Assembly (NCBI GenBank): GCA_008273105.1
Contig: GCA_008273105.1_4080.1
DNA: 64,000 nucleotides
Reading direction: 5' to 3' (one strand)
Origin: a phage
Made by a program: the position numbers and the translations under genes. Of the stretch, positions 5,965 through 42,923 are shown in pieces (the first letter of the stretch is position 1; the number at the start of each line of letters is the position of its first letter). A model generated the notes under the pieces. It saw nothing but the letters and a program-made list of their open reading frames with translations, had not been told where the DNA came from and ran no database searches.

Positions 5965-5975
5965 TCATTATCTCC

Positions 5976-6752: not shown

Positions 6753-6796
6753 AGCAACCTCTTTTTATTTTATAAGGCATTATACTTTATTTAGCA

Positions 6797-6825
6797 TAAA
6801 AAAAGCCCCGAATAGATTCGAGGCT
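6797..6825 (-). terminator. rho-independent terminator between tube paralogs
   Basis: Minus-sense 10-bp stem AGCCTCGAAT/ATTCGGGGCT (one mismatch) followed by T8. Confidence 0.55.
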
Positions 6826-6846
6826 ATATATTAAGTTTAAATAAAA

Positions 6847-7533: not shown

Positions 7534-7723
7534 TTATATTCTCCTATTATGGAATGACATCTTTATATTATTTATCTATCTGGAAGTATATTTTTAATTA
7601 ACTAAAGTGTCATCAACAGGGAACCAATTAATATTAACACAATATAAGTATCTTTTTCGTTTAGTGTGGTCAATATAGTTTACTGATATAGACCATTTTC
7701 CATTTGTGTATACTTCGTATTTT

Positions 7724-7849
7724 TCAATTATACCGACAATCTTCCAAATTTTTTAAAAATATATTTAGTATGTGTACTGATTCCAACTGAGTTAAAACTA
7801 TTTTACTGACATCTTGTATTGTTTTTTTTAGTATTTCTTCCATATCCAT
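7724..7849 (-). CDS. small hypothetical protein (41 aa)
   Basis: ATG preceded by AAAGGAA 4 nt upstream; below track size cutoff. Confidence 0.35.
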   Translation of the reverse strand: MDMEEILKKTIQDVSKIVLTQLESVHILNIFLKNLEDCRYN

Positions 7850-7894
7850 AATGTTCCTTTATAACATCAATATAAAGGTATTTAATTTTAATCA

Positions 7895-7920
7895 ATAAAA
7901 AAGGGAACCAAAAGGTTCCC
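7895..7920 (-). terminator. rho-independent terminator after tail sheath gene
   Basis: Stem GGGAACC/GGTTCCC with 4-nt loop, followed on minus strand by T6. Confidence 0.7.
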
Positions 7921-7928
7921 TTAGTGTT

Positions 7929-10592
7929 TTATTGAGTTTTCTCGATACGGATTGGTACGTAAATGAAGTTAATACTCTTAGTTGGTTGAATTGCAATATC
8001 CATCCAAAGTTCATTACGGTCAATACGCTCTGCGGTGTTGTTACTTTCATCACAAACCACTGCGAAGTTATAAAGACCCTGTTGTTGAACAATTTCAGCC
8101 AAGAAGCTATTAACTACACCACTAAATTCCTGACGAGTACTTGGAGTATTCAAACGGAATAGGAATGGTTCGGAAATAATTTCTAGTTGACGACGAATAT
8201 AAACAACTAAACGAGCAACGTTAACACGACTTAGTGCAGAAGTTTGATTAGCAGATAGAGTTTTATCTCCATAAACAAGCAAACCACGGTTAGGACGCAT
8301 TGCAATTGGGTTAATGTTGTTAGTATACATAACGTCACGTTGACCTTGGTTGTATACTACTGGTTGATATTCACCTTCGCTGTTGATAAAACCAGTACTT
8401 GCAGCGTTTGTTACAACACCACGAGTTGTACCAGCAGGTGGATACCATACATAACTAACACTATCACTGTATGCATATGTACGCATTGCAATAGTACTAC
8501 CAGGAACTGCAACTTCTTCACCATCAACGTTAGTACTTAGACACCAACCCATATACTGAGCAGCATAATCATAAGCAGTTGTACGACCAACTGAACCGTT
8601 ACTTGGTGCATTGTTAGCATTAGTAGCCCATTGTTGTACAGCACTACCGTTTCCGGTTGGATTCAAACGTGCTGGAACGTCAGTAACAATAAATGCAGTT
8701 TCTTTACGATCAGTGTTTAAAGTTACACATTCATCAAGTGTTTCAACGTAACCAGGTACACAAATTAGGTTAAAATCAATAAATTCAGAACGAATGTCAT
8801 CATTACCAATAATAACAGCAGCTAGTGCTTCAACTACTAGTTGACGTTGTGCAGCACGACCAAATAGGCCAGCACCATCAAGACTTACACCACTAACAAC
8901 TTCCCATTGACCATTAACCATTTTCTTAACAACACCTTCAGTGTTACCTAGGTCAACTGCAAGCATACCATTTTGATACAATGCCGCCGCAGGAACTTGG
9001 CTTGGGAAATTAAAGTCTTGGAAAATCATACCATTTAGTGTACTTTGGTCAGTACTGTCAAGTTTAACCCATTCACCATCAACGTTGCGATAGAAATCAT
9101 AACCATCAATGCCTTGAGACAAAGGACAAACCCAAATTAAACGGTCAGCCGCTGGTTCATCAACTTGTACATATTTGTTTTCTTCTTGTACTAGATCCCA
9201 ATCATCATTAGCAACATCAGCAACATACATAGTTACAGTTAAATTATCGGAGTTCCCGAAATCATACCAGAGAGTTCCTTCTTTTGCTACACTACGTGGT
9301 ACTGAATAACTAACACGGAAGTTATTAACGTTAATTAGAGAGTAGTTGTTACTATCTACAGTTAGTTTTTGTAGTTCAGATTCAGCAAAAATATCATCAC
9401 CACTTTGTGTGATTTTGAAACTGTAACCTTTTGTATTGGAAACAACTAAACCACCATTAGTTTCACGTTTAAATTTAAAACCATCGTTAATAATTTCAGC
9501 ATTTGCATTTAGATTATTGATGATAGTTTGGGTATTAATAACACCGCCTTGTGGAACTGCTAGTACTTTAACTGATTTATTCAAATAAACAAAAGTCATA
9601 TAGCTATCAGCACCTGCTTGTTCAATAATAGTTTCACCAAGTGGCAAAGCAGGAGCACTAATTGTTGTTAGTTTTGCACTTTGAATATAGAAAGAGAAAC
9701 TCTTACTATCTTCATCAAAACGAGATGCGATATAACTATTGTTTAGTACACCACTTTTCGCTTCAATTTCTTGGAATGAATTACCAGTATATGCTGGTAC
9801 AATATTCCAAACTTGAGTTAGGGATGCATAACGTTTAATAACAAAACGAGTACCAAAATAGTTTGAACCATTTTGGGTGTAACCATCACGAATCCAAATG
9901 TTACCTTTTTCTACAGTTGAGCCAACTGGAACTTTGTTAATTGGTGATAGGTAAGTTTCCATTTGCACTAGCCCAGAAGCAGAACGTTTATACATTAGCA
10001 TCTGACCATTGCTTGGTTTGTAACGTAGAACTAAATCATCAACATTTAAACCTACTAGACTTACATCTTCAACTTCTTCAGCACTTACAATAGTTACTGG
10101 CTTAAGTTGCCAATCATAAAAACTGCTTGGACTATCTTTCTTCGCTACATACGCTTCTACTTGTGATTGTGCGGTATCAAACCACAAAGTACCATTGGAT
10201 ACTGGGCCAGTTGGTGCTTCAGCACTTGGTGCTAGTTGTGCTAGATCGATATCAGCACGAATTACATATGCACGGTTAGTAATGCCTAGATAAGAATATA
10301 CTGCATGTAGGCCATATTCGTTTAGTTCATCACCTTGAACAACAGAACCGTTATTCATTTGAAAAATTGGTGTACCATAGGTATCAAGTGAGCTTTTTTG
10401 TGATGTTAGAAGCTGTAGTTTTCCAGCGTTTGCTTTAGTAGTTCCCGCAGCAATTGCACTGCTTCCTGGGACAAGTTTGTCTTCAGCAGTAGCGATTACA
10501 AATAGTGGTACAGTGCCAGGAGCAGCAGCGGTACTCATACTTTCATCAGTTACTGAAATGGAAACGCCAGGTGAGAGTAGATCTCCTGCCAT
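7929..10592 (-). CDS. tail sheath protein
   Basis: 887 aa; conserved sheath C-terminal domain (LVYGDKTL...RVNVARLVVYIRRQLE...); GGAGGA RBS. Confidence 0.85.
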   Translation of the reverse strand: MAGDLLSPGVSISVTDESMSTAAAPGTVPLFVIATAEDKLVPGSSAIAAGTTKANAGKLQLLTSQKSSLDTYGTPIFQMNNGSVVQGDELNEYGLHAVYSYLGITNRAYVIRADIDLAQLAPSAEAPTGPVSNGTLWFDTAQSQVEAYVAKKDSPSSFYDWQLKPVTIVSAEEVEDVSLVGLNVDDLVLRYKPSNGQMLMYKRSASGLVQMETYLSPINKVPVGSTVEKGNIWIRDGYTQNGSNYFGTRFVIKRYASLTQVWNIVPAYTGNSFQEIEAKSGVLNNSYIASRFDEDSKSFSFYIQSAKLTTISAPALPLGETIIEQAGADSYMTFVYLNKSVKVLAVPQGGVINTQTIINNLNANAEIINDGFKFKRETNGGLVVSNTKGYSFKITQSGDDIFAESELQKLTVDSNNYSLINVNNFRVSYSVPRSVAKEGTLWYDFGNSDNLTVTMYVADVANDDWDLVQEENKYVQVDEPAADRLIWVCPLSQGIDGYDFYRNVDGEWVKLDSTDQSTLNGMIFQDFNFPSQVPAAALYQNGMLAVDLGNTEGVVKKMVNGQWEVVSGVSLDGAGLFGRAAQRQLVVEALAAVIIGNDDIRSEFIDFNLICVPGYVETLDECVTLNTDRKETAFIVTDVPARLNPTGNGSAVQQWATNANNAPSNGSVGRTTAYDYAAQYMGWCLSTNVDGEEVAVPGSTIAMRTYAYSDSVSYVWYPPAGTTRGVVTNAASTGFINSEGEYQPVVYNQGQRDVMYTNNINPIAMRPNRGLLVYGDKTLSANQTSALSRVNVARLVVYIRRQLEIISEPFLFRLNTPSTRQEFSGVVNSFLAEIVQQQGLYNFAVVCDESNNTAERIDRNELWMDIAIQPTKSINFIYVPIRIEKTQ

Positions 10593-10686
10593 ATTAAATC
10601 CTCCAAAAATAATTGGTTATTCGAAATATATTCGTATAGTCTTATTTATTGAAGGATTTAATTGTCCAGTCCTTATTGTTTATAAT

Positions 10687-11313
10687 TTATGTATTAGAAT
10701 AAATAATGTCCATTGCTTTTTTATGTAAATCATCAATAGTACTGTTATTCTGTACAATTATATCAGGATTGTTTATTCCAATCCAAGCCCACTCAGATTC
10801 GTGTACTGATTCAAGTTCAACTGGTTTAATATTAATATCCCCTTTATTATAAGAGGCAGCCAAACCATACCAATGTGGTAGAACACGTTGAACTTCAATA
10901 ATAGTCCCATTATTCGATCTAATCATTTTTAATTCATTTGGAAAACGGCAATCAGTGATGATGATATTTCCATCTATGTCTTGCATTGATTTTTCTAAAC
11001 TGAATACCCAAATATCATTATGAAAATACTTACGCAAAATATTAGTACCATAATTCTGCAATACCCATCGAGGGGATACATCATTACGACCTAACTTATC
11101 ACACCAGTACTGATCCGGTTCTTCACGAATCTTACGACTTTCCTTAGTTGACCCCTCAAGCATTTCACGGTCCCATCCAAAGATGGCAGCAACTGAATCT
11201 TTTAGATTGGTTGCGAATGACATTCGTGTGTAACCATTATTAATAAAAGATTCACCAAATGTATCTTTACCACTTCCAATAGTTCCGTTAATTGCAATTA
11301 TTTGTCTTCCCAT
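10687..11313 (-). CDS. deoxynucleoside monophosphate kinase (T4 gp1-like)
   Basis: P-loop GTIGSGKDT; blocks resembling T4 gp1 as recalled (LQNYGTNIL, IITDCRFPNE...GTIIEVQRV). Confidence 0.7.
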   Translation of the reverse strand: MGRQIIAINGTIGSGKDTFGESFINNGYTRMSFATNLKDSVAAIFGWDREMLEGSTKESRKIREEPDQYWCDKLGRNDVSPRWVLQNYGTNILRKYFHNDIWVFSLEKSMQDIDGNIIITDCRFPNELKMIRSNNGTIIEVQRVLPHWYGLAASYNKGDINIKPVELESVHESEWAWIGINNPDIIVQNNSTIDDLHKKAMDIIYSNT

Positions 11314-11331
11314 TATACTACTCCATGTATT

Positions 11332-11601
11332 TTATATAATTTCTATTAAATCCTTTCCTACTAAACTTTCAAGTAATCCAAGAATTGACTCATTACCATA
11401 ATATATAGAAACATAAGTAATAAAAAATGTTTCCCCATCATCATCACGATATATACTCGCCCATGCATTTATTCGATCTCTACCGATAACATCAATGATT
11501 GAATCTTTGATAAATTTCCAGTACTTTTCAGTTGATTCGTAATCAAGCGTTGGTCTACCACAACGATATCTGTTATACGTTACATTTATGTTATTATTCA
11601 T
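11332..11601 (-). CDS. hypothetical protein
   Basis: 89-aa ORF; TATAAT-like box and AAAGGAAC RBS upstream. Confidence 0.5.
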   Translation of the reverse strand: MNNNINVTYNRYRCGRPTLDYESTEKYWKFIKDSIIDVIGRDRINAWASIYRDDDGETFFITYVSIYYGNESILGLLESLVGKDLIEII

Positions 11602-11645
11602 GACAAGTTCCTTTAGATTAATATTATCATTATATCACATAATAT

Positions 11646-11674
11646 GAAAAAGACTCCATATAGGAGTCCTTTTA
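11646..11674 (-). terminator. rho-independent terminator
   Basis: Stem GACTCC/GGAGTC, 5-nt loop, flanking A- and T-tracts. Confidence 0.5.
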
Positions 11675-11676
11675 AT

Positions 11677-12483
11677 TTAGCCAATAATCATACCGAGTGG
11701 TTCAGCACCATCTTGATAACGTTTCAAACGCTCTTTAAGCTGTTCTTGAAGCTGTAAACCTTCATTGCGTAAGGTATCACCATCCATAGAAAACGTTCCC
11801 TGTGGTCCAGGAAGCGATGCGAATTTAGCACGGTTACGACCCAACATTATCATTGCTTCGGATAAAGCCCAATCACGCAACCAAGGATAACTTTGCTGCC
11901 TTTGGAACAACAATGGTTCAGGAATATTATGATACACGTGTAATAGTACTTCTTCAGTACCTCGAATATCACGATCTATAATTAATTTTTTGGTCATTGG
12001 GTTAAATTGAAATATAATATCACGACCAAACATACGACCTACCAGTTCTTGGAACTGAAAACTAAAATCATATGTAGTTAGATCATATCCACCAGCATTT
12101 CGTGCTGAAGTCAATAAGTAAGTGTTGGTGAATGCTAGAGAAAACGGGTCTACTGAGTTCCCACTACCAGAACTTAAGTAACCATTACCATAACGATAAA
12201 TCTTTTTAACAATTTCAACTTCAGTTGGTAGCATATATACAGATTGTGAATCATAAAATTTCATATTTAAAAATGCTTCTTCTTTAGAAGCAGAACTCCA
12301 CGCTCTGTAATTCGATACCGCATTATCAATTGCAATTTCTAATTGACCATCAGTAATTTCTACCTCAACGGCCCCAGCACCCAACATTTGAGTGATAACA
12401 TCTTTCAGTTTTTCACGATGGTCAAAGTTAGGAGCATCAGGGTTTCCACCCATATAATCGTAAGACATAAAAAAGCACCTCAT
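11677..12483 (-). CDS. putative virion structural protein
   Basis: 268-aa ORF; true start probably Met6 (MSYDYMGG, GAGGTG SD upstream). Confidence 0.5.
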   Translation of the reverse strand: MRCFFMSYDYMGGNPDAPNFDHREKLKDVITQMLGAGAVEVEITDGQLEIAIDNAVSNYRAWSSASKEEAFLNMKFYDSQSVYMLPTEVEIVKKIYRYGNGYLSSGSGNSVDPFSLAFTNTYLLTSARNAGGYDLTTYDFSFQFQELVGRMFGRDIIFQFNPMTKKLIIDRDIRGTEEVLLHVYHNIPEPLLFQRQQSYPWLRDWALSEAMIMLGRNRAKFASLPGPQGTFSMDGDTLRNEGLQLQEQLKERLKRYQDGAEPLGMIIG

Positions 12484-12518
12484 TAATGTTTATATACATT
12501 ATTTAGAGGTGCTAATAG

Positions 12519-12737
12519 TTATTTTGAATTATACAAGCAGTACAGGTATACCAATGGAGTAAAATGTTCGGAATCTATTATATATATTAACTGAGTAACA
12601 TATATTCCATATAGATCTCGTGATTTATCTCTGTACATTAACAATGATTTATTTAAGTAAGGATCAACCCAGTACTTAATATCATTGTACTTCAACGTGT
12701 TGTTACGGTAACCTGATAGTTTTGAATTTTTATTCAA
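12519..12737 (-). CDS. hypothetical protein
   Basis: 72-aa ORF filling an otherwise non-coding gap. Confidence 0.35.
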   Translation of the reverse strand: MNKNSKLSGYRNNTLKYNDIKYWVDPYLNKSLLMYRDKSRDLYGIYVTQLIYIIDSEHFTPLVYLYCLYNSK

Positions 12738-13107
12738 TTTTCTTACAATTACTCAGTAAGTGAATGATATCATCAGCAGTGAATGGTCCCAATACCAGAA
12801 CTTCTTCACCATTTCCGAAAATGCTCAATGGCACTGATTGTTGACCAGCTAGATATTCAATTTGTTCCAGTTCGAAAATGTCATCAGCAGCATATACTAC
12901 CTGCTCCATTTCATTATCTTTAATCCATGACTGCCAATGTTCTTTAAACTTCTTAGCTTCGTATTCTTGAACATAGTTAGGTGATTCAGGGTTGTATTGA
13001 TGTAACATAGTCATCCCAGCCATTACTAATTCTTTAGGGGATGGTGTAGAATCTTTCAGTACTACGATAGCTTGGATAGTTTTTACTTTAACGTCATTAG
13101 CAGCCAT
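12730..13107 (-). CDS. hypothetical protein
   Basis: 125-aa ORF. Confidence 0.5.
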   Translation of the reverse strand: MAANDVKVKTIQAIVVLKDSTPSPKELVMAGMTMLHQYNPESPNYVQEYEAKKFKEHWQSWIKDNEMEQVVYAADDIFELEQIEYLAGQQSVPLSIFGNGEEVLVLGPFTADDIIHLLSNCKKIE

Positions 13108-28511: not shown

Positions 28512-28931
28512 TTACAACATTTTTTGAATATGTTCTACTAGTTCATACAGCTTCGTTTCATTATTCTCGAACTTTTCATCAACTTCAACATTGAATTTTT
28601 CTTCTAGTTCCATGACCATTTCAATCCAATCAAGCCAATCAAAATTGAATTTTTCTTCGACTTCCAATTTAGTAAGATTGAAGTTCGCTGATACCTCATT
28701 CTCTGATGTATCACAGTAACGAGTAGTGATGAATTTGACAATTTCTTTTTCAACATCGTTTAATTCACGAGTTTGATATTCGGGCTGAAGATACCACCAT
28801 TCTCCCTTATTAATAGATTCCAATTCTTGTTTGATTTCATGCATTACTTTATAACGGTCAGTACTTTTATCAATAGAATTTACTTCTTGGTTCAATACAT
28901 GTAGTGCATTTTTAATACGTTCATTTAACAT
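28512..28931 (-). CDS. hypothetical acidic protein with ACP-like helix motif
   Basis: DWLDWIEMVMELEEKFNVEV resembles ACP helix II (DSLDTVELVMALEEEF) but Ser is replaced by Trp. Confidence 0.45.
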   Translation of the reverse strand: MLNERIKNALHVLNQEVNSIDKSTDRYKVMHEIKQELESINKGEWWYLQPEYQTRELNDVEKEIVKFITTRYCDTSENEVSANFNLTKLEVEEKFNFDWLDWIEMVMELEEKFNVEVDEKFENNETKLYELVEHIQKML

Positions 28932-28943: not shown

Positions 28944-28973
28944 TAAAAAAGAGAACTCCATATGAAGTTCTCT
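28944..28973 (-). terminator. rho-independent terminator after 929-aa gene
   Basis: 8-bp stem AGAGAACT/AGTTCTCT, 8-nt loop, T6 on minus strand. Confidence 0.6.
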
Positions 28974-29004
28974 GATTATACATAATTACTTTTTCTATGT
29001 CAAG

Positions 29005-31795: not shown

Positions 31796-32332
31796 TCATA
31801 CTCCTGCTCTAATTAATGCACCGTACCATGTAACTCCTTTATCATATGTTTCTAATGAAATAATATCTTTTTCACCAATTTCATAAGAAAGAACAACTGG
31901 TCTGTTATATGACCATTTAACATTAGAACCCCAATTAACTAGGTTTGAACCTGTTTGTTGTGTTAATAGGATGGTAATTGAATAAACTTCAGTAGGAGCC
32001 GCACCAATCGAAATAGTAGTATTTCTATCAGATAAATTAATATTAAAAACAGCATTGCCCGACAGTGGATTAATTAAAATATTATTAGAACTTAATACAT
32101 TATATAACTTATTACTTGCACTATCATATAATGTTACCCATTCTGTTTCATGATTCTCGTTAGTAGCTTTAGCTTTTATCTTAACATTATTTTCAGAATC
32201 AGTCATTCCAGTCCATCCAGATATAATAAAAGAACTGTTTTTATTAGTTCCGAATGATGCAATCACAGAATCACTAAGAGAACTATCTTCACCATCAATA
32301 GATCCGAGTACTGACAATGTTAAAACCATCAT
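31796..32332 (-). CDS. hypothetical protein
   Basis: 178-aa ORF; 38-nt overlap with upstream ORF in +1 frame. Confidence 0.5.
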   Translation of the reverse strand: MMVLTLSVLGSIDGEDSSLSDSVIASFGTNKNSSFIISGWTGMTDSENNVKIKAKATNENHETEWVTLYDSASNKLYNVLSSNNILINPLSGNAVFNINLSDRNTTISIGAAPTEVYSITILLTQQTGSNLVNWGSNVKWSYNRPVVLSYEIGEKDIISLETYDKGVTWYGALIRAGV

Positions 32333-32486
32333 TTTTAATGTCTACACCAGTTGCACCTGAAAAATTATTTTGAAATTTAATAACTCCGGTAGTGTGGATA
32401 TCTGTGAAAATTTGTTGTGCCATACTTAATCCTTGTGTTAATTTATATTGAGTATTTATTGAGTGTAATGGCATTTTTAGTACCAT
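32295..32486 (-). CDS. small hypothetical protein (possibly N-terminal part of 31796-32332 via frameshift)
   Basis: 63-aa ORF, weak RBS. Confidence 0.3.
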   Translation of the reverse strand: MVLKMPLHSINTQYKLTQGLSMAQQIFTDIHTTGVIKFQNNFSGATGVDIKNDGFNIVSTRIY

Positions 32487-32500
32487 TACACTTGTATATG

Positions 32501-34771
32501 TTACTTATACCATTGCATTTCTCTAATATCAATGATAATTTTTGATGCTAACTTGATGTTTGGTTTTTTAGGAAGTACTGATTTCTTATATAGAACATCA
32601 CGAATGTATTGTACTTTATCATCGAAATATTCTAAGACTTCTTCATACTTCCATTTACCATTACGAATATCCATCAACATTTGTGCATCTGGTCGTTTAA
32701 CTTGAATAATTCCACTTTGTAATGCTTCTTCTGCACTATTCAAAAGTCGGATTGTGTGCATAGCATGTTTACAGTTTCCATGTAATGCAGTTTTACCATT
32801 TCTACGAGTAACCAGTGTACCGTTCGGAACTGAAAAACAAACAGTTCTGTAGTTAGTTACTGGAATTTTTTCAAGATTTTGTTTCATGTTTATTTTTTCT
32901 GATTTAGGTTTCATATTGATATGAACTTGATACATTTCAATATAACCAAAATTAGTTTCGTTTGTGTATGGTCCCCATTTCGATGTTTCATAACCGCACA
33001 GTAATGCTAGTTTTTGAACATCATCAGCTAATAATGAATTAGCAGTATAATATACATATGTGTCATCATGATTGACCAAATTACGTTTTGTACCATCACC
33101 TTGCAACAAACCTTTTAGCAGAAAATCCATTTTTCGTTTTGTTAAATCAAATGCCCAATTTGGAATTCTTTTATTATATGATCCATGCCCACAATCATTA
33201 TATAATGCTTCAGCCACTTCACGTGGAAATACAAATCTTGATTCATCATTTGATTGGTAATCTTTTCTTTCGTTAATGTATTCCTGAAATATCATTTGTC
33301 CAGATTGTTTGTATTTTGATAAAGCACAACGCATACCAGGACTGGCTTTTGATTGTGAAATGTATAATGATTTTACTTTTCCATCTCTAAAACTTATACT
33401 ACCATCTGAAAGAAACCATCCCATCAGTTGAAGATAAACTTTGATATCCATATAGTCAATTGGGCTTTTTTTATCTTTATATTCCTTTGTTATTGGAGAT
33501 AATGTATTCAAAATTTTATAAGTTTCTTTTAATTGTGCTGCTTCAACAAATTGCCATTCTGACATATCTTTTTGCTGATTACGTGCATAATTCTTAACAT
33601 ACATTCTGTGATTTGCAGTCACTAACGTATCTTGGTGATGACCAGTGAAATGGTAAAGATTTCCATTGTATAAATTATCAAAACGTTCTGTGTATTTTTG
33701 ATACTCTATTTTGTGATTTTTATCAAAAGTCGCTAATAGATCTTTATCAGTGATGTCGTCAAATAATTTCCAACCATCTTTAGTTAAGAATTCAGTATCA
33801 AAACTATAACAGTCGTATCCGTGTTGTGATTCTAAAATAGCACGTTTGGCATTACGATTTTCTTTCCATTTATGATAACTTTTCCTATTCTCACTATTTT
33901 CCTGATATTCTTTTTCGTTAAATTTGACAATTAGTTCTGGTTTAGTTTTCAACTCTTCAGTACTACGCTCTTTAGAAAAATAACGCAATGATCCATCACC
34001 GTTGATAGTGCTTTCATTCGGATTTTTAATAATCGCAAAAATGTTTTCTCCGTAATGAATTAGTTCATAACCATTATTAAAATTCAATAAATTGAAATCA
34101 CGATCAAGAATTTTTTCAGTAGTGTAGTTATGCACTAATCTTACAAAATGATATTGCTTTAATGGATTTTTCGAAACTAACTGCAATGACGTATCACGCA
34201 TATATTTTTCAAAATCAATCTTTTTAGCATTAAATGGATGTAAGTTGGATGTATCTAAACGTTCAACAAGATACTGTGGGAATGAATCATACATCCACGC
34301 AAGAACCTCATCGACAGGGTGTTCTTCTAAAATCTCATTTAATCGTTTTTCAGCAATACGCTCTTTATCCATCCAACCGTGATGATTTGTCATACGCTTA
34401 ATCTGATTATATGCATATCCAGTGTATGAAAATGCAATCTTGGAACTAAGAAGTTTTTGGTTAAATGAACGAAGATAGTCATAAATCTCAGTACTTTCTA
34501 CAATGTGTTCTGGATCGACCCATAGTGATTCCAATATATTAGGGTTGGCTTCAGTGTATAATTTTAAATACTGATTTAACTCATAGAATTTAGTATCTTC
34601 TTCATTTTTATCAGCTACTTCTTTGACCTTATAGAATGGCGTAAGAATAAATTCTTTATTAGCAAGAAAAATACCACGATAATCAGTATCACTTTCAGGT
34701 GTACTGGTTCCGTAGGCTTGTGACCCAGCCAAGTGTTTCACTATTGTTTGTTCAACATATTGGTTATTCAT
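32501..34771 (-). CDS. Pol-beta-superfamily nucleotidyltransferase interrupted by an intein
   Basis: N-terminal HLAGSQAYGTSTPESDTDYRGIF (GS...SDxD NTase motif); in-frame ~346-aa intein; C-extein CKHAMHTIRLL... Confidence 0.7.
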   Translation of the reverse strand: MNNQYVEQTIVKHLAGSQAYGTSTPESDTDYRGIFLANKEFILTPFYKVKEVADKNEEDTKFYELNQYLKLYTEANPNILESLWVDPEHIVESTEIYDYLRSFNQKLLSSKIAFSYTGYAYNQIKRMTNHHGWMDKERIAEKRLNEILEEHPVDEVLAWMYDSFPQYLVERLDTSNLHPFNAKKIDFEKYMRDTSLQLVSKNPLKQYHFVRLVHNYTTEKILDRDFNLLNFNNGYELIHYGENIFAIIKNPNESTINGDGSLRYFSKERSTEELKTKPELIVKFNEKEYQENSENRKSYHKWKENRNAKRAILESQHGYDCYSFDTEFLTKDGWKLFDDITDKDLLATFDKNHKIEYQKYTERFDNLYNGNLYHFTGHHQDTLVTANHRMYVKNYARNQQKDMSEWQFVEAAQLKETYKILNTLSPITKEYKDKKSPIDYMDIKVYLQLMGWFLSDGSISFRDGKVKSLYISQSKASPGMRCALSKYKQSGQMIFQEYINERKDYQSNDESRFVFPREVAEALYNDCGHGSYNKRIPNWAFDLTKRKMDFLLKGLLQGDGTKRNLVNHDDTYVYYTANSLLADDVQKLALLCGYETSKWGPYTNETNFGYIEMYQVHINMKPKSEKINMKQNLEKIPVTNYRTVCFSVPNGTLVTRRNGKTALHGNCKHAMHTIRLLNSAEEALQSGIIQVKRPDAQMLMDIRNGKWKYEEVLEYFDDKVQYIRDVLYKKSVLPKKPNIKLASKIIIDIREMQWYK
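32774..33811 (-). mobile_element. intein with LAGLIDADG homing endonuclease domain
   Basis: Block A CYSFDTEFLTKDGWK; LAGLIDADG-like LMGWFLSDGSISF and LLKGLLQGDGT; C-terminal ...ALHGN then Cys+1; boundaries approximate. Confidence 0.75.
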
Positions 34772-35169
34772 AGATAAATTGTTAACTCCTTTAAGAAACC
34801 GTTATAATAACGATTAAAGTCATGTTCTAATGTTTTATAATCATCAAAACTAAAACCTAAATTGATAATTGTATCTTCTTGAAAGAAAGTTTCTTCATTC
34901 ATACATTCAATTGGTTCGTAATTAATTCCACCTTTAAAAACTTTTGTAAAAAATATTCCATCATTATTAATTTCAACATACATAAAATTATTTTCTGGGT
35001 CACGAGGGCAGACGATATTCAGTGAACTATTTCCACTCGTGTTGTACTCATAAGAAATTATATCAAAAGAATCAATACCATAACACTTAGATTTTTCTTT
35101 ATCACCAAATACTTTTCTATCTGTACTCATATTGCGTATAGTGCTGTAGATATCATCAACTGTAGTCAT
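34768..35169 (-). CDS. hypothetical protein
   Basis: 133-aa ORF. Confidence 0.5.
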   Translation of the reverse strand: MTTVDDIYSTIRNMSTDRKVFGDKEKSKCYGIDSFDIISYEYNTSGNSSLNIVCPRDPENNFMYVEINNDGIFFTKVFKGGINYEPIECMNEETFFQEDTIINLGFSFDDYKTLEHDFNRYYNGFLKELTIYL

Positions 35170-35171
35170 CG

Positions 35172-35681
35172 TTAACCACCATACTTTGACTTGTATGTTT
35201 CAAGTGATAAAGAAATACGATTTTGCTTTTTAATTCTTTCATCAATATCCTTTGAATTCTTCACACTTCGGTATACGTCAGCTAGTAAATTATAATCTTC
35301 TTTATTTGAGCTATGCTGTGCCCAACCTATCTCTGTTTTAATACGAACATTTGCTTTATTTGACGAGTAAAAGAAACTGAATCCATTGGACCCATCAAAA
35401 ATATCAAAAGTATCTACCCAATCACCATAAGGAAAGCTCATTGGAACTGACTCATGGTCTATTGTGATATCCGATAAATTTTTTGAACAGTACTTCGCAA
35501 AGTGATAAACGATTGGATCACATTTTGATAATTCGTATTTGTATTCAATGATAGTTTTTCTATTAGCATCATTGATAGCATATTCTTTTATCAATGGACT
35601 TTTTTTGATGATAAGAGTCCATAGAAACGATTCTAATCCTGTTTCATCAACTTTTTGTTTCTTTTTGAAAAATGAAATCAT
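35172..35681 (-). CDS. hypothetical protein, tandem paralog family member 3
   Basis: Shares KSxxLK...TDxDR(K/R)...KYxLSK and W...FxG motifs with the two upstream genes. Confidence 0.55.
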   Translation of the reverse strand: MISFFKKKQKVDETGLESFLWTLIIKKSPLIKEYAINDANRKTIIEYKYELSKCDPIVYHFAKYCSKNLSDITIDHESVPMSFPYGDWVDTFDIFDGSNGFSFFYSSNKANVRIKTEIGWAQHSSNKEDYNLLADVYRSVKNSKDIDERIKKQNRISLSLETYKSKYGG

Positions 35682-36199
35682 TTATATAAACCCTTAATTT
35701 TCTGTCTATTATGTATATCATTTTGCTGGATTTTCAATTTAGTAAGGTTGTTTCTTACACCTTCAACACCACGCATTATTTGTAACATAATTAGTGATTC
35801 GTCATATGTTAGGACATTGCTATTATTATCGATATATACTTTCACTCCACTTTCAAGATAATCATTTTCTTTGGAGTTAAAGTTTCTAATAACAAACTTA
35901 ACGCCATTTGATGCATCACTGAAAACATATCGTTCCGCACCGTAGAATGTTTTTCCACGAAATAAACCGCCGTCTTCCCACTTCCAACGACTAGATTCAT
36001 AATCATTAACGTAATCAATGATTAAAGAAAGTAAAGGGTGTTTGCTCAATTTATATTTTGCATCTAACAGGATACGTCTATCATTATCTGTGGTGATAAT
36101 ATCCTTTAGTGAGTAGCTTTTAGATATAATTTTAAAGATAATTTCATGCCAAATTAAAGTACTGTTTTGTTTTCCAACTGATCCAAAAAACATATCCAT
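35678..36199 (-). CDS. hypothetical protein, tandem paralog family member 2
   Basis: Paralog of 35172-35681 and 36206-36772. Confidence 0.55.
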   Translation of the reverse strand: MDMFFGSVGKQNSTLIWHEIIFKIISKSYSLKDIITTDNDRRILLDAKYKLSKHPLLSLIIDYVNDYESSRWKWEDGGLFRGKTFYGAERYVFSDASNGVKFVIRNFNSKENDYLESGVKVYIDNNSNVLTYDESLIMLQIMRGVEGVRNNLTKLKIQQNDIHNRQKIKGLYK

Positions 36200-36205
36200 T
36201 CCTCA

Positions 36206-36772
36206 TTAGTATAAATCAGTAATGTCTTTGTATGCATTAATCTGTTTTTGTTGTAATGAAAGTTCATTGAGTTTAGTTACCATCTTATCTACACCAACAC
36301 GTGTATAGAAAATAATTAATGAATCTAAATTGCCTAGAGTAATTCTTGAACTGTAAGTTGAAAGTTTTCTTGCATAAACATAAATTTCTTCTTCACTTGG
36401 TAAACGTTTCTCAATCTGCAAGATTTCCTCACCATTCGGCTCATAATCGATTTCAAATTCAACTCCCATCACTGTGTCTTGAATGCGATCTGTATATGAA
36501 CCACCGTAAAAATACTCTCTTGGTTTGGCTCTCCAACGAGGACTAAATGGGTCAGATGCGTATTCTTTTACAAATTTGTAAAAGGACATTTTACTGAGCA
36601 TATACTTCATCTCAATTAGTGCTTTGCGGTCATCATCAGTTTTAAACTCTGCTTTGAGCGATGGACTTTTACACAGTAACTTAACTAAATTGTTGTACAT
36701 CTTTAATGTACGTTGTTCTTTCATTTCTTTGATTTTGTGACGTTTTGGTGGCGGTAATAAAGATTTGACCAT
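36206..36772 (-). CDS. hypothetical protein, tandem paralog family member 1
   Basis: Paralog; AGGAGG RBS; first gene after fibre-gene terminator. Confidence 0.55.
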   Translation of the reverse strand: MVKSLLPPPKRHKIKEMKEQRTLKMYNNLVKLLCKSPSLKAEFKTDDDRKALIEMKYMLSKMSFYKFVKEYASDPFSPRWRAKPREYFYGGSYTDRIQDTVMGVEFEIDYEPNGEEILQIEKRLPSEEEIYVYARKLSTYSSRITLGNLDSLIIFYTRVGVDKMVTKLNELSLQQKQINAYKDITDLY

Positions 36773-36805
36773 AATTTCCTCCTATTTTTATTCAATTATA
36801 CACAT

Positions 36806-36835
36806 AAAAGAAAAGCCCGTCAATAGACGAGCTTT
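36806..36835 (-). terminator. rho-independent terminator after fibre gene
   Basis: Stem GCTCGTC/GACGGGC (one mismatch), 4-nt loop, TTTTCTTTT tail. Confidence 0.55.
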
Positions 36836-36839: not shown

Positions 36840-39569
36840 TTATTTCCAACGTGTACCTGGACCTGATGGTACACCAGTACTGGCAGGTATCGCTGAACCA
36901 CGTTTCGTTGTACTTGGACGATATGTCAAAAAACGAGTTACTTTTTCTGTATCAATTGAAGTTATTCCTGAAGTTCCAGTAACTATCTTACCAATGTAAG
37001 TGCTAGTTAAAGATTCATCAATTGTTTCAGTACTAATAACATATGACGCTTTCTTAGTATTCCTGTTCATTTGTATATACAAATAGAACGTAGTATTAGC
37101 TGGATTACTTTTTACAGTACTTAAATCAACACTTTGTATAGGTAGTCTGTCGAAAATTCCACCTAAAAACACCGGAACTTCACGTGTAAAGTACACTGAG
37201 AATCCTTGTGCAACGTCTTGTGATACTACCACAATCTTTTCTTTAACGCTACCATTTCCACTAATTAAACCATCCATTTCAGCAGATGTTGTACCAAAAA
37301 CGCTGAATACAGATTTGGTTTGATAGTCAGAATCTTGAAAATTGTAATATCCAAAACCAACACCAGGAATAACACCATGTTGATATGCTGCACCAAGTTG
37401 GATGTAACTAGATGATAAAAAACGATTTGATGTTATGACACCATCTACTGTTTTAGCTATCATCATCTTAAATTGTGCATTACCTGGTTGTGAAAATTGA
37501 TGAACGGCATCAACACCAATGTAACCAAATCCTGAATATTTTGCAACAGTTAGACCAGTACAACGTTTCATATATGCTTCAGTAATAATTCCTGTAACAG
37601 AACTCAGTGTTTCATATCTAGTACTCACCAATGTAGCTGAAGTTATGTTAGTTCCAGATAATACAACATCAACTTCGGCATAGATTGCATAACCTTGGTT
37701 ATTGTTAAGATTATATGCTGAAACTACTGCGATGGATTTAGAAAAAGTATTATCAGGTACATAATATAATACAATTTGTCCAGATAGTGTACCAACAATG
37801 CCAGAGTTTCCTATATTAGCAAAAATATCTTGTTTTAATGATTCTAATACCGTTGGTTCTATTGTATATGTTTCATCAAATTCTAAAGTATCTGGATTTA
37901 ATAATCCACCACTTGTTTTATATACACCTTCAATGAATGATGTTCCATAGCATCTAACACTACCATCGGTATCAACAAGAGAAATCATAGCAGTGTATGT
38001 AAAATCATCGCCTATTTGTTTACGATTAGATTGTGGTGCAAAACCATTTAATGTAGTATTATTTTGAACTGAGTTATATTGATATGTTGGTTGTGAACCT
38101 ATTTCAGAAAAAACAGTATTATTATAATTATATGTTACATCATCATACGTACCAGAACATGCTAATAATATTTTTCTATTATCGATGAAACGTACACCTA
38201 AAAGGTTTGCACCAACAGCACTACCAAAAACTGGTAAAACGTTTGCATTTATAACGTTACTTGCGGTTCTAGTACTGGCAACCCATGAATCAAACGGTGT
38301 ACCACTAACCTTATATCGTTGTAGACCATAAAATTCAGTTGAACTCCATCTAAATTTAGATGCAAATACCAAACCATCTTTAGTTTGACATAAACCACCT
38401 GCGTTTCCTAATACACCAGCAGCAGTTGTCCCTGTGAAGTTGACCATATTAATTTCAAATGGGTTAGAAACTTGAAATCCATTATTATATGAAACAGTTG
38501 CAGGTGCACGAGCACTACCATCTAGTGACATAGATTTTGAGTTTATATTATAAACAAAACTTATTCCAGTACCATAAACTGTTGAAATATACAAAGGTGT
38601 AACCATTCGATGTGTTGGATATAAAGTTACACGTATTTTTGATAAATCAGGACTAACGTTGGCTTGAATGTTAAAGTCTGTATAGTCTGAAAATTCTACA
38701 CGTGATACTGGTGATGTAACTTCGAATAATGAATCCGAGCTAGTACCAACACTATATAATTTATCGAACACTCTTATGTTATTAGATGCAGAATAACTTG
38801 TGTTTCGAACAGTTTGACCTGATAACCCAGTAACTTTTGTTAATGATGCCATTGAGCTTGCTTTCACATCACTTAGCTCTACTGTATAAATTGAAAGTGC
38901 TAATCCTAAATTAGAAACACTTTTATCTTTACACCAAATATAAACCTTTGTCCCAACAATATGTGTATATATTGGCATATCATTACCAAAAGAAGTACTT
39001 GGCACTTTAGCATGAATATGTGATATTTCGTTAAATGTGCCATTGGTTATAGTAAAAATATAATTATCTTCAGTACTTAAACATCCAAGCATCTCATAAC
39101 CATTAGAGCCAATAAAATACTTAATATTTTCAGTACTACTCATAATTGAAGGTTTATACATTGAATTGGTTGAAATAACACTTTCTTGTGAAATCATAGT
39201 TATATTTCGGAGATCTCGTATAAATGAATAATAAAAACCTTTAGTACTACCATTGGTTCCGCTACGCAGAACAACGGCGGTTCCATCATCTTCAATAATT
39301 GTTGGCTGAACTACTTGGTCACTTGACATAGGTGTAGCACCTTCATACGATCCACTTACGTTTAATGGTAAGTAATCCATTTCTCCTACACGTGATATAG
39401 GCAACATATCTAAAATACTTTGAACTTCTGAACGCTTATATATTGGATATTGAACAATTCCAGTATTGGCATTCGGTGAGGTTCCATTAAAAGTACGCAT
39501 AGCGTACCTTTGTCCAATTGCCAAGTTCCCAAGGATCTCGGCACTTCCTATAATTCGTTTTGATGACAT
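36840..39569 (-). CDS. putative tail fibre / receptor-binding protein (paralog A)
   Basis: ~910 aa from MSSKRIIG (AAGGAAAATAAAG RBS); N-terminal LRSGTNGS and C-terminal GTSGIT...TYRPS...GxPSxxGT modules shared with 40185-42881. Confidence 0.6.
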   Translation of the reverse strand: MSSKRIIGSAEILGNLAIGQRYAMRTFNGTSPNANTGIVQYPIYKRSEVQSILDMLPISRVGEMDYLPLNVSGSYEGATPMSSDQVVQPTIIEDDGTAVVLRSGTNGSTKGFYYSFIRDLRNITMISQESVISTNSMYKPSIMSSTENIKYFIGSNGYEMLGCLSTEDNYIFTITNGTFNEISHIHAKVPSTSFGNDMPIYTHIVGTKVYIWCKDKSVSNLGLALSIYTVELSDVKASSMASLTKVTGLSGQTVRNTSYSASNNIRVFDKLYSVGTSSDSLFEVTSPVSRVEFSDYTDFNIQANVSPDLSKIRVTLYPTHRMVTPLYISTVYGTGISFVYNINSKSMSLDGSARAPATVSYNNGFQVSNPFEINMVNFTGTTAAGVLGNAGGLCQTKDGLVFASKFRWSSTEFYGLQRYKVSGTPFDSWVASTRTASNVINANVLPVFGSAVGANLLGVRFIDNRKILLACSGTYDDVTYNYNNTVFSEIGSQPTYQYNSVQNNTTLNGFAPQSNRKQIGDDFTYTAMISLVDTDGSVRCYGTSFIEGVYKTSGGLLNPDTLEFDETYTIEPTVLESLKQDIFANIGNSGIVGTLSGQIVLYYVPDNTFSKSIAVVSAYNLNNNQGYAIYAEVDVVLSGTNITSATLVSTRYETLSSVTGIITEAYMKRCTGLTVAKYSGFGYIGVDAVHQFSQPGNAQFKMMIAKTVDGVITSNRFLSSSYIQLGAAYQHGVIPGVGFGYYNFQDSDYQTKSVFSVFGTTSAEMDGLISGNGSVKEKIVVVSQDVAQGFSVYFTREVPVFLGGIFDRLPIQSVDLSTVKSNPANTTFYLYIQMNRNTKKASYVISTETIDESLTSTYIGKIVTGTSGITSIDTEKVTRFLTYRPSTTKRGSAIPASTGVPSGPGTRWK

Positions 39570-39585
39570 CTTTATTTTCCTTAAT

Positions 39586-40173
39586 TTACCAACCAATTGT
39601 ACCAGTTTCTGATGGTTTTCCAGTACTGACTGGGAATGAAGAACCTTTTTGTGTAACACTAGGTCTATATGTACTAAATCTGGATACTTTATTAATGTTT
39701 ATATTTGTAATACCACTTGTACCAACGGTCAGTGTTCCAATAAACATTATAATTTCAGATTCTTGTATTTGTGTTGGTGATATTTTATAAATTGGTTCAC
39801 CGAGAACTAACGTTGCATATACGTATTGTGTTTGTGTTCCAGATGAAACAGTTGAAGCAAAAATAGAAACTGCTGGAAATTTATAAAGATAACCACCAAT
39901 AAATGATGGTATCTGTCTATTAAATGTAAGACTATAGCCTGATGAAGTAATATTTAGACTAGCGTCATCATACAATTCTCCGTATTGTGTAAGTGGTAAT
40001 CCATTGACAATAAAGTTAACTTCATCTTTGGTAATAGAGGGGAATGTACATTCCCCATTTGAATTTGTTGGGTAATAAGTCATATTATTACCTAATACAC
40101 CAAGACCAGTACTTTTACCCTGAACTGTAACTTGTTGCATTGCCTTAAGGTCTGCTCTTATTTTATATGCCAT
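39586..40173 (-). CDS. putative short fibre-like protein sharing C-terminal module (paralog B)
   Basis: 195 aa; C-terminus VGTSGITNININKVSRFSTYRPS...GKPSETGTIGW matches both large neighbours. Confidence 0.55.
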   Translation of the reverse strand: MAYKIRADLKAMQQVTVQGKSTGLGVLGNNMTYYPTNSNGECTFPSITKDEVNFIVNGLPLTQYGELYDDASLNITSSGYSLTFNRQIPSFIGGYLYKFPAVSIFASTVSSGTQTQYVYATLVLGEPIYKISPTQIQESEIIMFIGTLTVGTSGITNININKVSRFSTYRPSVTQKGSSFPVSTGKPSETGTIGW

Positions 40174-40184
40174 TATGTAATCCT

Positions 40185-42881
40185 TTACCAGTTTATGGTT
40201 CCTGTTTGTGATGGTAGACCGTAGCTAACTGGGAACGATGAACCTGCTGATTCAAGTGAAGCACCAAATATATCTAAACGGGAACGTTTTTGTATATTAA
40301 TTGTTTCGATTTGAATTGCATTAGTTTGAATTGTACCTATCCAAAAAATATTATATGCAGTTGTTCCTGTTTCAGAAATAACATCAGTAGTTATGTAATA
40401 GTTTGCCAATCCTTGTTCCAATTTAACATATACATAAAATGTTGTATTTGCTGGATTAGACTTAATAGTTCTCAAATCAATATTTGAAACTGGTAGTGAA
40501 AATGACTTACCTGAAAGAATAACTGGTGTTTCCTCTGTAAAATATACAATAAACCCTTGAGCAACGTCCTGGGATACTACGTTAATTGGGCTACCTTGTG
40601 CAGTCCAGTTATTATAGTCGGCAATCGTTGTTCCATATTTTTTGAATGTCATTTTATTTGAGTAATCCATTGGTTCAAAAATTCCAAAACCAATACCAGG
40701 TAATGCTGCTGGTTGACTTCCTTGTTCATAACTGGCATGAGATCCAGTAATTATAAAACTTGTAAATTGTGCAGTTGATTTAGTTACATATGCTCTAAAT
40801 TGATGAGTTGCAGTATTACCTATTGTTGGATGTGATAATGGGTCAGAACCACCAATGAAGTAGAATGAACCACCATCATATATTGTCAAACCAACAGAAG
40901 AAGATGCAATCGAACCATTCCCAGTTGGTGTAAAGTTATCACCATACGTATTCTCAAGTACTAAACGCTTAAATGTAATAGATGTAATATTACCAACTCT
41001 AGTATTGACATTAACTTCAGCAATTCTAATATAGTTTCTATAATCATTAGTAATTGTACTCAACATAACAAAAGCTGGAATGTCTGTTTGTTGTGGAACA
41101 AATAGTGTCATATCACGGTATGCTTGTGCTGATAAATTCCAATCACTTAGAACTTTGGCATATTCAGTATTTCTAAAATTGTCCAGTACTGATTGTGTAA
41201 CGCTTATAATTCCTGTGCCATTTAAGTTTTTATCATAGGATAATGATTGTGAATAACGTTGCCCAACCATAAAAATACCACCATTGGTTGTGACAGTTGA
41301 CCCAGAAATACTACTAATAAAAATTCTATTATTTGCATTATCATCAACATTAGCACGTTCAACTGTAGGTTCATAACCTTGTATTGTTCCTAAAGATAAT
41401 GATTTAAATGTAAAATTAGGAGTACTTTTATGAACTGCATATGATGGTCTAAATCCACCACTACCTGATGCACGTGAATATTGTTTAGTACTGTTATCTG
41501 GTAGTAATTCTACACCATTAATAAATGAACCAACCGCTGAACCAAAAGACGGGCGAACTATACCACCTTTGAAGTCAGTAGAAAGTACAGCACGGACATT
41601 CAGCATACTATAAACTATTTGAATAGGAAACTTAGCTTTTTGCATAAGTAATGGTTCTGCTAAGTTTGGACATGCAGTACAAAATGCTTCACCTGAATTT
41701 AAATAAAAATATGAACTATAAATGTTTCTTGCATTTGCATGGTTATACAATGGATCGTTATTTAAAACGTTACCAGTAGGAACTAATGCCGAACCAGTAT
41801 TAGTTATAACTAATGGTGCTTGATATGAACCAATATCGTTACCCGCATCTAATGTACATTGTTTAGTACTCATATTGAACACAAAACTGTAACTATGCTG
41901 TGGACGTGTATTATATGTTGCCATTGTAAACCAAGCATCCCCGTTCATTCTAAAGCGGAAATTCTGCGTTCCTGGCTGCTGTGCAACATATAAATCAATT
42001 GATGTCATGTAAATCCCAATACCACGTAGATTTTGTGGAACATACACATAAGGTTTATCAGCAATATTTGTTGATGTTACCTGATTAGTAATAACCATAT
42101 TATTTTGTGCAGAATATGTCGTGTTATAAAATGTTTTAGTAGTCCATCCAGTAATTCGAGTTGCAGTATAAGTACCATTGCTTATATTATAAACAACTTT
42201 AACAACAACTAATTGTAGTTGGTTATTTTCATTAAGTACGTTAAAAACATATATAGAACCATCTTCTGCCATCATAGCATATTCAATACCACCTTCAGGT
42301 GATATATCTGCTTGGTTAACGAAAAAACCAGTATGCAATTTATCATCTAATGTACCATTGGTAATTGATATGAACAAACCATTAGTACTGTTAGAAGTAT
42401 CAATATATCTACCGAGTAAAATATTTGGATCAGTATTATATAAACCAATCGCAACTCTATTTGAACCAAAAAACCCAGGCTTGTATTGACGACTAGTGTT
42501 AATTGTACGGCTCATGTCATCAACTGATAATGCGTTAGCCAAATATGAATAAAATAATCCCTCAACACTACCGTTTGTCCCACTACGTAAAAGTACTAGT
42601 GTACCATCGTTTTCTAATAAAATTTTATTTCTACGTTGTGACTGGTTTTCTGATGCACCATTGAAATCCCCAGAAACACCCGCAGGTAGATAGTTTTGTG
42701 AACCATAATGGGAGATTGGCATCATACTTACTATATCTAGTACTTCATCTCTGGAATAAGTATCTAATTCCAAGTTACCGTTGGAATCAAAAACTTGTTC
42801 ATTTATTCCTTGAATTGTTCTTTTACCATTAACTGTCACATTATGTGTGACATCTAAGCCACCATATATTTTCTTTGACAT
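40185..42881 (-). CDS. putative tail fibre / receptor-binding protein (paralog C)
   Basis: 898 aa; shared N- and C-terminal modules with 36840-39569; late-promoter-like motif upstream. Confidence 0.6.
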   Translation of the reverse strand: MSKKIYGGLDVTHNVTVNGKRTIQGINEQVFDSNGNLELDTYSRDEVLDIVSMMPISHYGSQNYLPAGVSGDFNGASENQSQRRNKILLENDGTLVLLRSGTNGSVEGLFYSYLANALSVDDMSRTINTSRQYKPGFFGSNRVAIGLYNTDPNILLGRYIDTSNSTNGLFISITNGTLDDKLHTGFFVNQADISPEGGIEYAMMAEDGSIYVFNVLNENNQLQLVVVKVVYNISNGTYTATRITGWTTKTFYNTTYSAQNNMVITNQVTSTNIADKPYVYVPQNLRGIGIYMTSIDLYVAQQPGTQNFRFRMNGDAWFTMATYNTRPQHSYSFVFNMSTKQCTLDAGNDIGSYQAPLVITNTGSALVPTGNVLNNDPLYNHANARNIYSSYFYLNSGEAFCTACPNLAEPLLMQKAKFPIQIVYSMLNVRAVLSTDFKGGIVRPSFGSAVGSFINGVELLPDNSTKQYSRASGSGGFRPSYAVHKSTPNFTFKSLSLGTIQGYEPTVERANVDDNANNRIFISSISGSTVTTNGGIFMVGQRYSQSLSYDKNLNGTGIISVTQSVLDNFRNTEYAKVLSDWNLSAQAYRDMTLFVPQQTDIPAFVMLSTITNDYRNYIRIAEVNVNTRVGNITSITFKRLVLENTYGDNFTPTGNGSIASSSVGLTIYDGGSFYFIGGSDPLSHPTIGNTATHQFRAYVTKSTAQFTSFIITGSHASYEQGSQPAALPGIGFGIFEPMDYSNKMTFKKYGTTIADYNNWTAQGSPINVVSQDVAQGFIVYFTEETPVILSGKSFSLPVSNIDLRTIKSNPANTTFYVYVKLEQGLANYYITTDVISETGTTAYNIFWIGTIQTNAIQIETINIQKRSRLDIFGASLESAGSSFPVSYGLPSQTGTINW

Positions 42882-42915: not shown

Positions 42916-42923
42916 TATTTATA
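42916..42923 (-). promoter_or_regulatory. T4-type late promoter-like motif (TATAAATA on minus strand)
   Basis: Exact TATAAATA ~40 nt upstream of fibre gene start, just after the nrdG terminator. Confidence 0.4.

Follow-up and report, generated by a model that had tools for sequence, protein, structure and literature searches.

Three small, fast-changing proteins beside the virion genes of an Asteriusvirus jumbo coliphage: unlikely tail-fibre helpers, possibly early partners of an RNA-repair enzyme

Why should a jumbo phage carry a tandem set of small, diverged paralogs directly behind the genes for large, fibre-like virion proteins? The question is raised by a 64,000-nucleotide stretch of phage DNA (GenBank assembly GCA_008273105.1, contig GCA_008273105.1_4080.1; hereafter the window), which belongs to an Asteriusvirus jumbo coliphage of the 121Q/PBECO4 group with E. 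coli as host, and in which three consecutive genes, here called A, B and C, follow three related genes for putative fibre proteins. An original prediction, made from the sequence, had preferred to view A-C as dedicated fibre chaperones in one-to-one numbers, with an exclusion or anti-defence family as its alternative. The separate promoter and terminator, the copy numbers and the divergence described below do not support the former, and the latter is retained as a possibility. It is unlikely that A, B and C serve as tail-fibre helpers, as they are seemingly switched on apart from the tail genes and made together with an RNA-repair enzyme. A tentative alternative, to which we give a probability of roughly 45%, is that the proteins work in the cytoplasm, probably early, as fast-evolving accessories to host takeover or counter-defence, and possibly act with repair enzymes; this rests on the class of promoter, the absence from virions, the rapid divergence, and the neighbouring genes for RlaP and Thg1.

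The locus is encoded on the minus strand throughout, and the order of transcription is nrdD, nrdG, genes for proteins of 898, 195 and about 909 amino acids (aa), A, B, C, a further small gene (D), a nucleotidyltransferase gene of the RlaP family, a 42-aa open reading frame (ORF), a 178-aa tail-fibre protein and a 929-aa tail protein. The elements of the cassette and its signals are as follows.

36812-36835, minus strand: intrinsic terminator closing the upstream virion-gene operon (10-pair stem, then a T-run; annotated in phage G17 as a terminator of -12.4 kcal/mol)
36795-36823, minus strand: sigma70-type promoter immediately upstream of A, TTGACG-17 nt-TATAAT, 11 of 12 consensus matches
36206-36772, minus strand: paralog A, 188 aa (phrog_18641, E=4e-79; family hidden Markov model (HMM), E~1e-40), with AGGAGG 7 nt before the ATG
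35678-36199, minus strand: paralog B, 173 aa (phrog_18641, E=3e-85), AlphaFold predicted local distance difference test (pLDDT) score 72.6
35172-35681, minus strand: paralog C, 169 aa (phrog_7868, E=7e-58; AlphaFold pLDDT 82.8), its start overlapping the stop of B by 4 nt
34768-35169, minus strand: protein D, 133 aa, acidic, isoelectric point (pI) 4.4 (phrog_22376), not a family member
32501-34771, minus strand: RlaP-family (PF10127) RNA-repair nucleotidyltransferase, 756 aa, final gene of the cassette (Pfam RlaP, E=4.4e-15), its start overlapping the stop of D by 4 nt
32453-32491, minus strand: hairpin (32463-32491) and late-like ATAAATA (32453-32459), read from the sequence as the end of the cassette and the restart of the next operon
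42916-42923, 32453-32459, 10643-10649 and 7569-7575, minus strand: examples of ATAAATA-type sites (motif scan)

The three consecutive genes of 188, 173 and 169 aa are thus borne out, as is the terminator that they were said to follow (36835-36812). The range originally given to the family (34768-36772) does hold the three genes, but it also takes in D, an unrelated fourth ORF. Likewise, the AGGAGG ribosome-binding site that had been ascribed to the cluster is present at A only and not at B, C, D or the nucleotidyltransferase gene; these follow closely, with 6 nt between A and B, 2 nt between C and D, and overlaps of 4 nt (ATGA) at B/C and D/RlaP.

How are these genes likely to be transcribed? 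A sigma70-type promoter (9-12 of 12 consensus matches, single or doubled) precedes the first small gene in all 20 loci compared, which comprise eight phages (the window included) and 12 further loci, and it has been kept although the remaining spacer has diverged; the late-like motif ATAAATA is absent upstream of the first small gene at these loci. Ahead of the gene that opens the virion trio lie instead a terminator and then (T)ATAAATAC, the latter 35-57 nt upstream of the gene, in 7/7 phages that possess the trio. The window holds only eight occurrences of ATAAATA on its coding strand, and a single TATAAATA, and the motif is found 35-57 nt upstream of the genes for tail sheath, tail tube, another virion protein, the 898-aa protein and the 42-aa virion protein. 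Beyond the stop codon of RlaP come a hairpin and the ATAAATAC motif, from which the next virion operon (42-aa virion protein, tail fibre, tail protein) is restarted. Such a placement of the motif is what a T4-type late promoter recognised by a gp55-like sigma factor would show; for phage CBB, RpoD-like, divergent and late ATAAATA promoter classes have been predicted together with a gp55-like late sigma factor (PMC5259590), and a gp55-like gene is annotated in RaK2. Because the cassette has its own sigma70-type promoter and is flanked by terminators and late-like motifs, A-B-C-D-RlaP is, as far as sequence signals can tell, a separately promoted unit between two late operons, and non-late expression of the small genes is predicted; the type of promoter points to early timing. 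Co-transcription with the fibre genes in a late operon is not what these signals indicate, since a terminator and a sigma70-type promoter lie between and the late-like motif is found only at the virion genes. At the junction itself the -35 hexamer lies inside the preceding terminator hairpin (36795-36835, minus strand), a composite terminator-promoter that is conserved across several genera and downstream of which a second promoter has been added in Mimasvirus/Eneladusvirus.

If each small protein served one fibre, the numbers of the two should move together. The small family is confined to RaK2-like jumbo myoviruses: an exhaustive profile search covering 1.84 billion representatives returned 72 clusters, in which every protein has a single domain and 108-237 aa and informative fusions are lacking. 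Three copies are present in Asteriusvirus, in Salmonella 7t3-like phages and in two metagenomic relatives, two in Alcyoneusvirus (Muenster, RaK2), and four in Mimasvirus/Eneladusvirus (GAP32, CBB, BF, Yen9-04); the four copies of CBB are not listed among the paralog sets of that phage in the paper describing it (PMC5259590). Set beside the ‘fibre’ family, the counts are two long and one short gene to three small ones in Asteriusvirus and the 7t3-like phages, three long to four in Mimasvirus/Eneladusvirus, and at least two or three to three in the metagenomic relatives. In the complete RaK2 genome there are precisely two small genes (ORF001 and ORF002), after which come D, ORF004 and RlaP (ORF005), and no proper ‘fibre’-family member, with one marginal match (ORF098, E=1e-4), which makes the ratio 0:2; its slot after nrdG is filled by ten tailspike/depolymerase genes unrelated to the ‘fibre’ family (JQ513383, 322764-345682). 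Erwinia phage RAY shows the reverse, with three tandem ‘fibre’-family paralogs beside a baseplate gene (locus positions 4751-13068) and no small-family gene within 9 kb of them at the one RAY locus scanned. The co-variation with fibre genes on which the original prediction had proposed to be judged is therefore not seen, the ratios being 3:3, 3:4, 0:2 and 3:0, and both of the arrangements that it had named as contrary to it occur, namely a cluster without the fibre genes in RaK2 and the fibre genes without a cluster in RAY, even if many unrelated spikes still adjoin the RaK2 cluster and the RAY count covers a single locus. One-to-one pairing with fibre genes was rejected on these ratios.

The upstream genes themselves are of three kinds.

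40185-42881, minus strand: 898-aa virion protein, first of the ‘fibre’ trio (phrog_3573), with TATAAATA at 42916-42923, 41 nt upstream
39586-40173, minus strand: 195-aa protein (phrog_26864), matching phrog_3573 positions 878-998 (E=8e-33)
36840-39569, minus strand: paralog of about 909 aa (909 aa in the G17 annotation, 939 aa in the mechanical ORF call)

Three related genes do stand upstream, as had been noticed, yet the ‘three fibre paralogs’ are two long proteins plus a short copy whose homology is limited to the C-terminal domain of the long ones. Both PHROG families are of unassigned function; the phrog_3573-type family is widespread in jumbo phages and annotated there as virion structural or minor tail protein. 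Orthologs have been detected in virions by published mass spectrometry (phAPEC6 gp323c, the ortholog of the 898-aa protein; CBB_148 and CBB_149), and the trio are virion proteins whose identity as fibres is putative. The virion proteomes are instructive on the small genes too: in phAPEC6 gp318c-321c are absent, whereas gp323c is present together with gp315c and gp314c, the orthologs of the 42-aa and 929-aa proteins, and in CBB the products CBB_150, 153, 155 and 156 are not structural whereas CBB_148 and CBB_149 are. The 909-, 195- and 178-aa proteins cannot be scored in the phAPEC6 proteome, because its record (MK817115) has no coding-sequence calls at 240118-242923 and 235572-236071, where the corresponding genes lie.

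The two sets of genes also differ in their rate of change. When the window is compared with A4 and JNE01, phages of the same genus, identity is 33-38% for A, B and C, as against 41-76% for the ‘fibre’-family paralogs, 60-62% for D and 75-87% for RlaP; against JNE01 alone, the figures are 34-36% for the small genes and 62-76% for the ‘fibre’ proteins. By these alignments no genes of the locus change faster than the small ones, which do not diverge in step with the virion proteins.

Are A, B and C a family at all? A and B can be aligned over their full length (BLASTP, E=5e-15, 30% identity), while pairwise matches of C to A and B are confined to the N-terminal 40 residues or so (E=1e-4 and 4e-4). 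At the profile level A, B and C each cover essentially the whole of their PHROG profile, phrog_18641 and phrog_7868 cross-hit at 2e-11 to 4e-5, and an iterated HMM built from relatives finds all three at E<=1e-40 with no other match in the window. Since homology extends over the entire length in profiles, cross-hits and multiple alignments that include relatives, A, B and C form one family of full-length paralogs, and the triplication is real, if very diverged. The KSxxLK, (T/N)DxxR and KYxLSK motifs first noticed in the three proteins are likewise real and conserved across genera, but ‘W...FxG’ is weak and out of register in C. On this profile evidence phrog_18641 and phrog_7868 are one family, already catalogued in PHROGs as two families without assigned function, the unity of which is newly shown here. 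Protein D was considered as a fourth paralog and rejected (hhalign probability 0.3%); decay of the duplicates was also rejected, since the ORFs are intact and the motifs conserved, and the related phages examined still have the genes tightly spaced or overlapping.

All three proteins share a helical region with KSxxLK...DxxR...KYxLSK, beta structure in the middle, and a long C-terminal helix with a conserved Tyr at its end. The AlphaFold model of B (pLDDT 72.6) has helices at 13-65, five strands at 72-129 and a helix at 132-171, and that of C (pLDDT 82.8) agrees with it in architecture. In each paralog an N-terminal helical bundle bearing the conserved KSxxLK...DxxR...KYxLSK surface is thereby predicted to be followed by a beta sheet of five strands and then by a basic C-terminal helix of 40 residues, which probably mediates homo- or hetero-dimerisation. 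With pI values of 8.7-9.2 the proteins are basic, including in their N-terminal and C-terminal helical regions, and their sequences show no sign of a signal peptide or transmembrane segment. That the family has no recognisable domain, as first stated, is upheld by Pfam, NCBIfam, PADLOC and PDB sequence searches, which gave no match for the proteins of the window or for 26 relatives; no profile of a catalogued defence or anti-defence family matched A, B or C, and word-indexed protein searches with the small proteins returned close relatives only. The remote-homology search that had been proposed as a check was run with profiles, PDB sequences and Foldseek against BFVD, where matches were limited to family members and uncharacterised phage proteins, and yielded nothing informative on function. 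The copy-number pattern, promoter context and fold of the small family are new but modest results.

What, then, of the genes that share the cassette? In Asteriusvirus, RaK2-like and 7t3-like phages the position of D is invariably between the small paralogs and the gene for the nucleotidyltransferase. The match of the latter to Pfam RlaP scores 56.5 bits, above the gathering threshold of 23 (E=4.4e-15). RlaP extends damaged RNA 3' ends by one or two nucleotides, and the restoration of heavily damaged tRNA requires it (PMC12776372); together with Thg1 it is regarded as an RNA-repair counter-defence enzyme of jumbo phages (PMC7824862). When 39 loci in IMG/VR were compared with the RlaP gene as anchor, the small family was found between the virion genes and RlaP at 14/14 RaK2-like loci, and the order from small genes to RlaP was kept in all of these as well as in the GenBank relatives. 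In the window and at all 20 related loci compared, the small genes stand behind a sigma70-type promoter, with a block of virion or receptor-binding genes on one side and RlaP on the other. In Mimasvirus/Eneladusvirus and relatives a gene for a Thg1-like tRNA-His guanylyltransferase is interspersed among the small paralogs, and in the GenBank records of GAP32, BF, Yen9-04 and pEa_SNUABM_47 a DUF4326/NrdA.1-like gene and an N4-cytosine methyltransferase gene also precede RlaP. The RlaP gene of the window is itself interrupted, at GYD|C, by a 346-aa intein with a LAGLIDADG homing-endonuclease domain (32774-33811, minus strand; LAGLIDADG_3, E=3e-5), the boundaries of which were taken from an alignment to the intein-less G17 gene; as the flanking exteins are identical to that gene at 314/320 and 90/90 positions, the intein is polymorphic within Asteriusvirus.

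The expression timing, dimerisation, and counter-defence or RNA-repair role that we infer could be combined as follows. A, B and C would be small, soluble, non-virion proteins heading a compact cassette (promoter, A, B, C, D, RlaP) set between two late virion-gene operons; with a host-type promoter of its own, this cassette would most likely be expressed early, or at least independently of late transcription; and the paralogs may have diverged to meet different targets, possibly assisting the co-transcribed tRNA-repair enzymes. Several observations weigh against such a scenario. The small family was found nearby in 0/25 of the more distant RlaP loci of IMG/VR, and because of this the association of family and RlaP may only mirror the shared ancestry of the RaK2-like clade. 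In every lineage, moreover, receptor-binding or virion genes stand immediately upstream of the cluster (the virion-protein trio in Asteriusvirus, 7t3-like phages and Mimasvirus/Eneladusvirus; tailspike genes in RaK2 and Muenster), a placement that counter-defence leaves unexplained. A sigma70-type promoter is compatible with late read-through, and some T4 assembly chaperones are made early. As to the expression of any member, the literature offers no transcriptome for any Asteriusvirus or RaK2-like enterobacterial phage, and the study of PA5oct bears only on a general dependence on host RNA polymerase.

The placement behind virion trio or tailspike genes in every lineage would be accounted for if A-C were assembly chaperones, one per fibre, that aid the folding or trimerisation of the 898-, 195- and 909-aa virion proteins and stay out of the virion, and the 3:3 count in Asteriusvirus and 7t3-like phages and the absence from virions are compatible with such a role. 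It is nevertheless very doubtful: a terminator and a conserved sigma70-type promoter split the small genes from the late-motif virion operon, the counts are off elsewhere (three long to four in Mimasvirus/Eneladusvirus, two small genes without the family in RaK2, three ‘fibre’ genes without a small gene within 9 kb in RAY), the small genes diverge far faster than their presumed clients (34-36% against 62-76% identity, window versus JNE01), no match to tail-fibre assembly families is found in Pfam or PHROGs, and the authors of the phAPEC6 study name another putative tail-fibre assembly protein, Gp220. Unlikely, too, but with more to recommend it, is the idea that these are superinfection-exclusion or other fast-evolving accessory proteins linked to neither neighbour, their position reflecting a historical insertion hot spot beside the receptor-binding-protein slot. 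The region between nrdG and the cassette is indeed replaceable (the ‘fibre’ trio in most genera, ten tailspike genes in RaK2), insertions of unrelated genes (DUF4326, N4-cytosine methyltransferase) are seen among the paralogs, and sequence turnover is rapid. Most exclusion proteins, however, have a membrane or secretion signal, of which A, B and C have none, and an unlinked passenger sits poorly with the tight overlap with D and RlaP that is kept in Asteriusvirus, RaK2-like and 7t3-like loci.

XRCC4 holds DNA ligase IV, and by analogy the small proteins might be coiled-coil scaffolds or adaptors of an RNA-repair complex, XRCC4/PAXX-like dimers that position RlaP, Thg1 and RNA ligase on damaged tRNA. 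The operon common with RlaP in all lineages, and with the Thg1-like enzyme in Mimasvirus/Eneladusvirus, agrees with this, as do the basic N-terminal and C-terminal helical regions; but RNA ligase and PseT are encoded far from the cluster in RaK2 (ORF464 and ORF470), RlaP is widespread without the small family, and very fast divergence is unusual for the partner of a conserved enzyme, so that the proposal seems rather improbable. Likeness to the XRCC4/XLF/PAXX/SAS-6 superfamily, with its globular head and coiled-coil stalk, amounts to weak structural scores at 2-11% identity, which do not indicate homology, and the fold predicted for the family from single-chain models differs in an extra N-terminal four-helix bundle that bears the conserved motifs. 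A bolder version, in which the family is an unrecognised XRCC4-like coiled-coil scaffold organising RlaP, Thg1 and RNA ligase, or else a direct neutraliser of host anticodon nucleases, each paralog being tuned to a different host effector, is a long shot.

Like Tfa of lambda, Mu and P2 and like gp38 and gp57A of T4, A-C are small, non-virion proteins encoded beside receptor-binding or virion genes; they differ in showing no sequence match, in belonging to a separate promoter class with an intervening terminator, in having a presence and copy number that do not follow the neighbouring virion family, and in evolving much faster than that family. Membership in a known tail-assembly family found no backing in Pfam, NCBIfam or PHROG matches for A, B, C or the 26 relatives. 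With the early accessory and counter-defence genes of T4-type phages and the RNA-repair modules of jumbo phages (RlaP, Thg1, Rnl, PseT) they share a host-type promoter, small fast-evolving products, and predicted co-transcription with RlaP (and Thg1 in some genera), although the small family is missing where RlaP occurs beyond the RaK2-like clade, and its targets are putative. If A-C are early counter-defence or RNA-repair factors, they would represent a clade-specific, quickly diversifying addition to the poorly understood RNA-repair arsenal of therapeutic jumbo coliphages, and the paralog set might then influence host range. The main value of the analysis is corrective, in that annotation of A-C as fibre chaperones should be avoided. 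PHROGs keeps two unannotated families of which A, B and C are full-length members; here they are one family with two to four copies per genome, and the two entries could be merged. The locus moreover offers a clean, conserved switch from a late-motif operon to a sigma70-promoter cassette, useful for annotating transcription units in RaK2-like phages, and the small family is one more fast-evolving orphan family of jumbo phages.

Some further observations concern the surroundings of the cassette. Over the 2-kb region of the small genes, Escherichia phage vB_EcoM_E9.1 matches the window at 100% identity and a further 32 Asteriusvirus records (121Q, PBECO4, G17 and phAPEC6 among others) do so at 90-99.8%; in all of them the four ORFs are labelled hypothetical protein. 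The slot after nrdG holds the phrog_3573 trio in the window (36840-42881) and ten tailspike/depolymerase genes in RaK2, and a trio of the same family stands beside a baseplate gene in RAY; this swap, the baseplate neighbour and the marginal match of ORF098 suggest that the trio is a replaceable host-recognition or baseplate-periphery module. The 939-aa call for the second long protein begins at an upstream GTG (39659) and overlaps the 195-aa gene; the real start is probably the ATG at 39569 (about 909 aa), given the G17 annotation and the sequence MSSKRIIG, which resembles the N-terminus of the 898-aa paralog. The 42-aa ORF (32295-32423, minus strand) corresponds to phAPEC6 gp315c (4.66 kDa), and as this was detected in virions with 69% sequence coverage the ORF is a genuine virion-protein gene. 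Finally, a perfect 12/12 sigma70 promoter (TTGACA-17 nt-TATAAT) followed by a terminator-like hairpin (28950-29003, minus strand) precedes an acyl-carrier-protein-like gene (28512-28931), and a similar promoter-then-hairpin arrangement is seen at about 17997.

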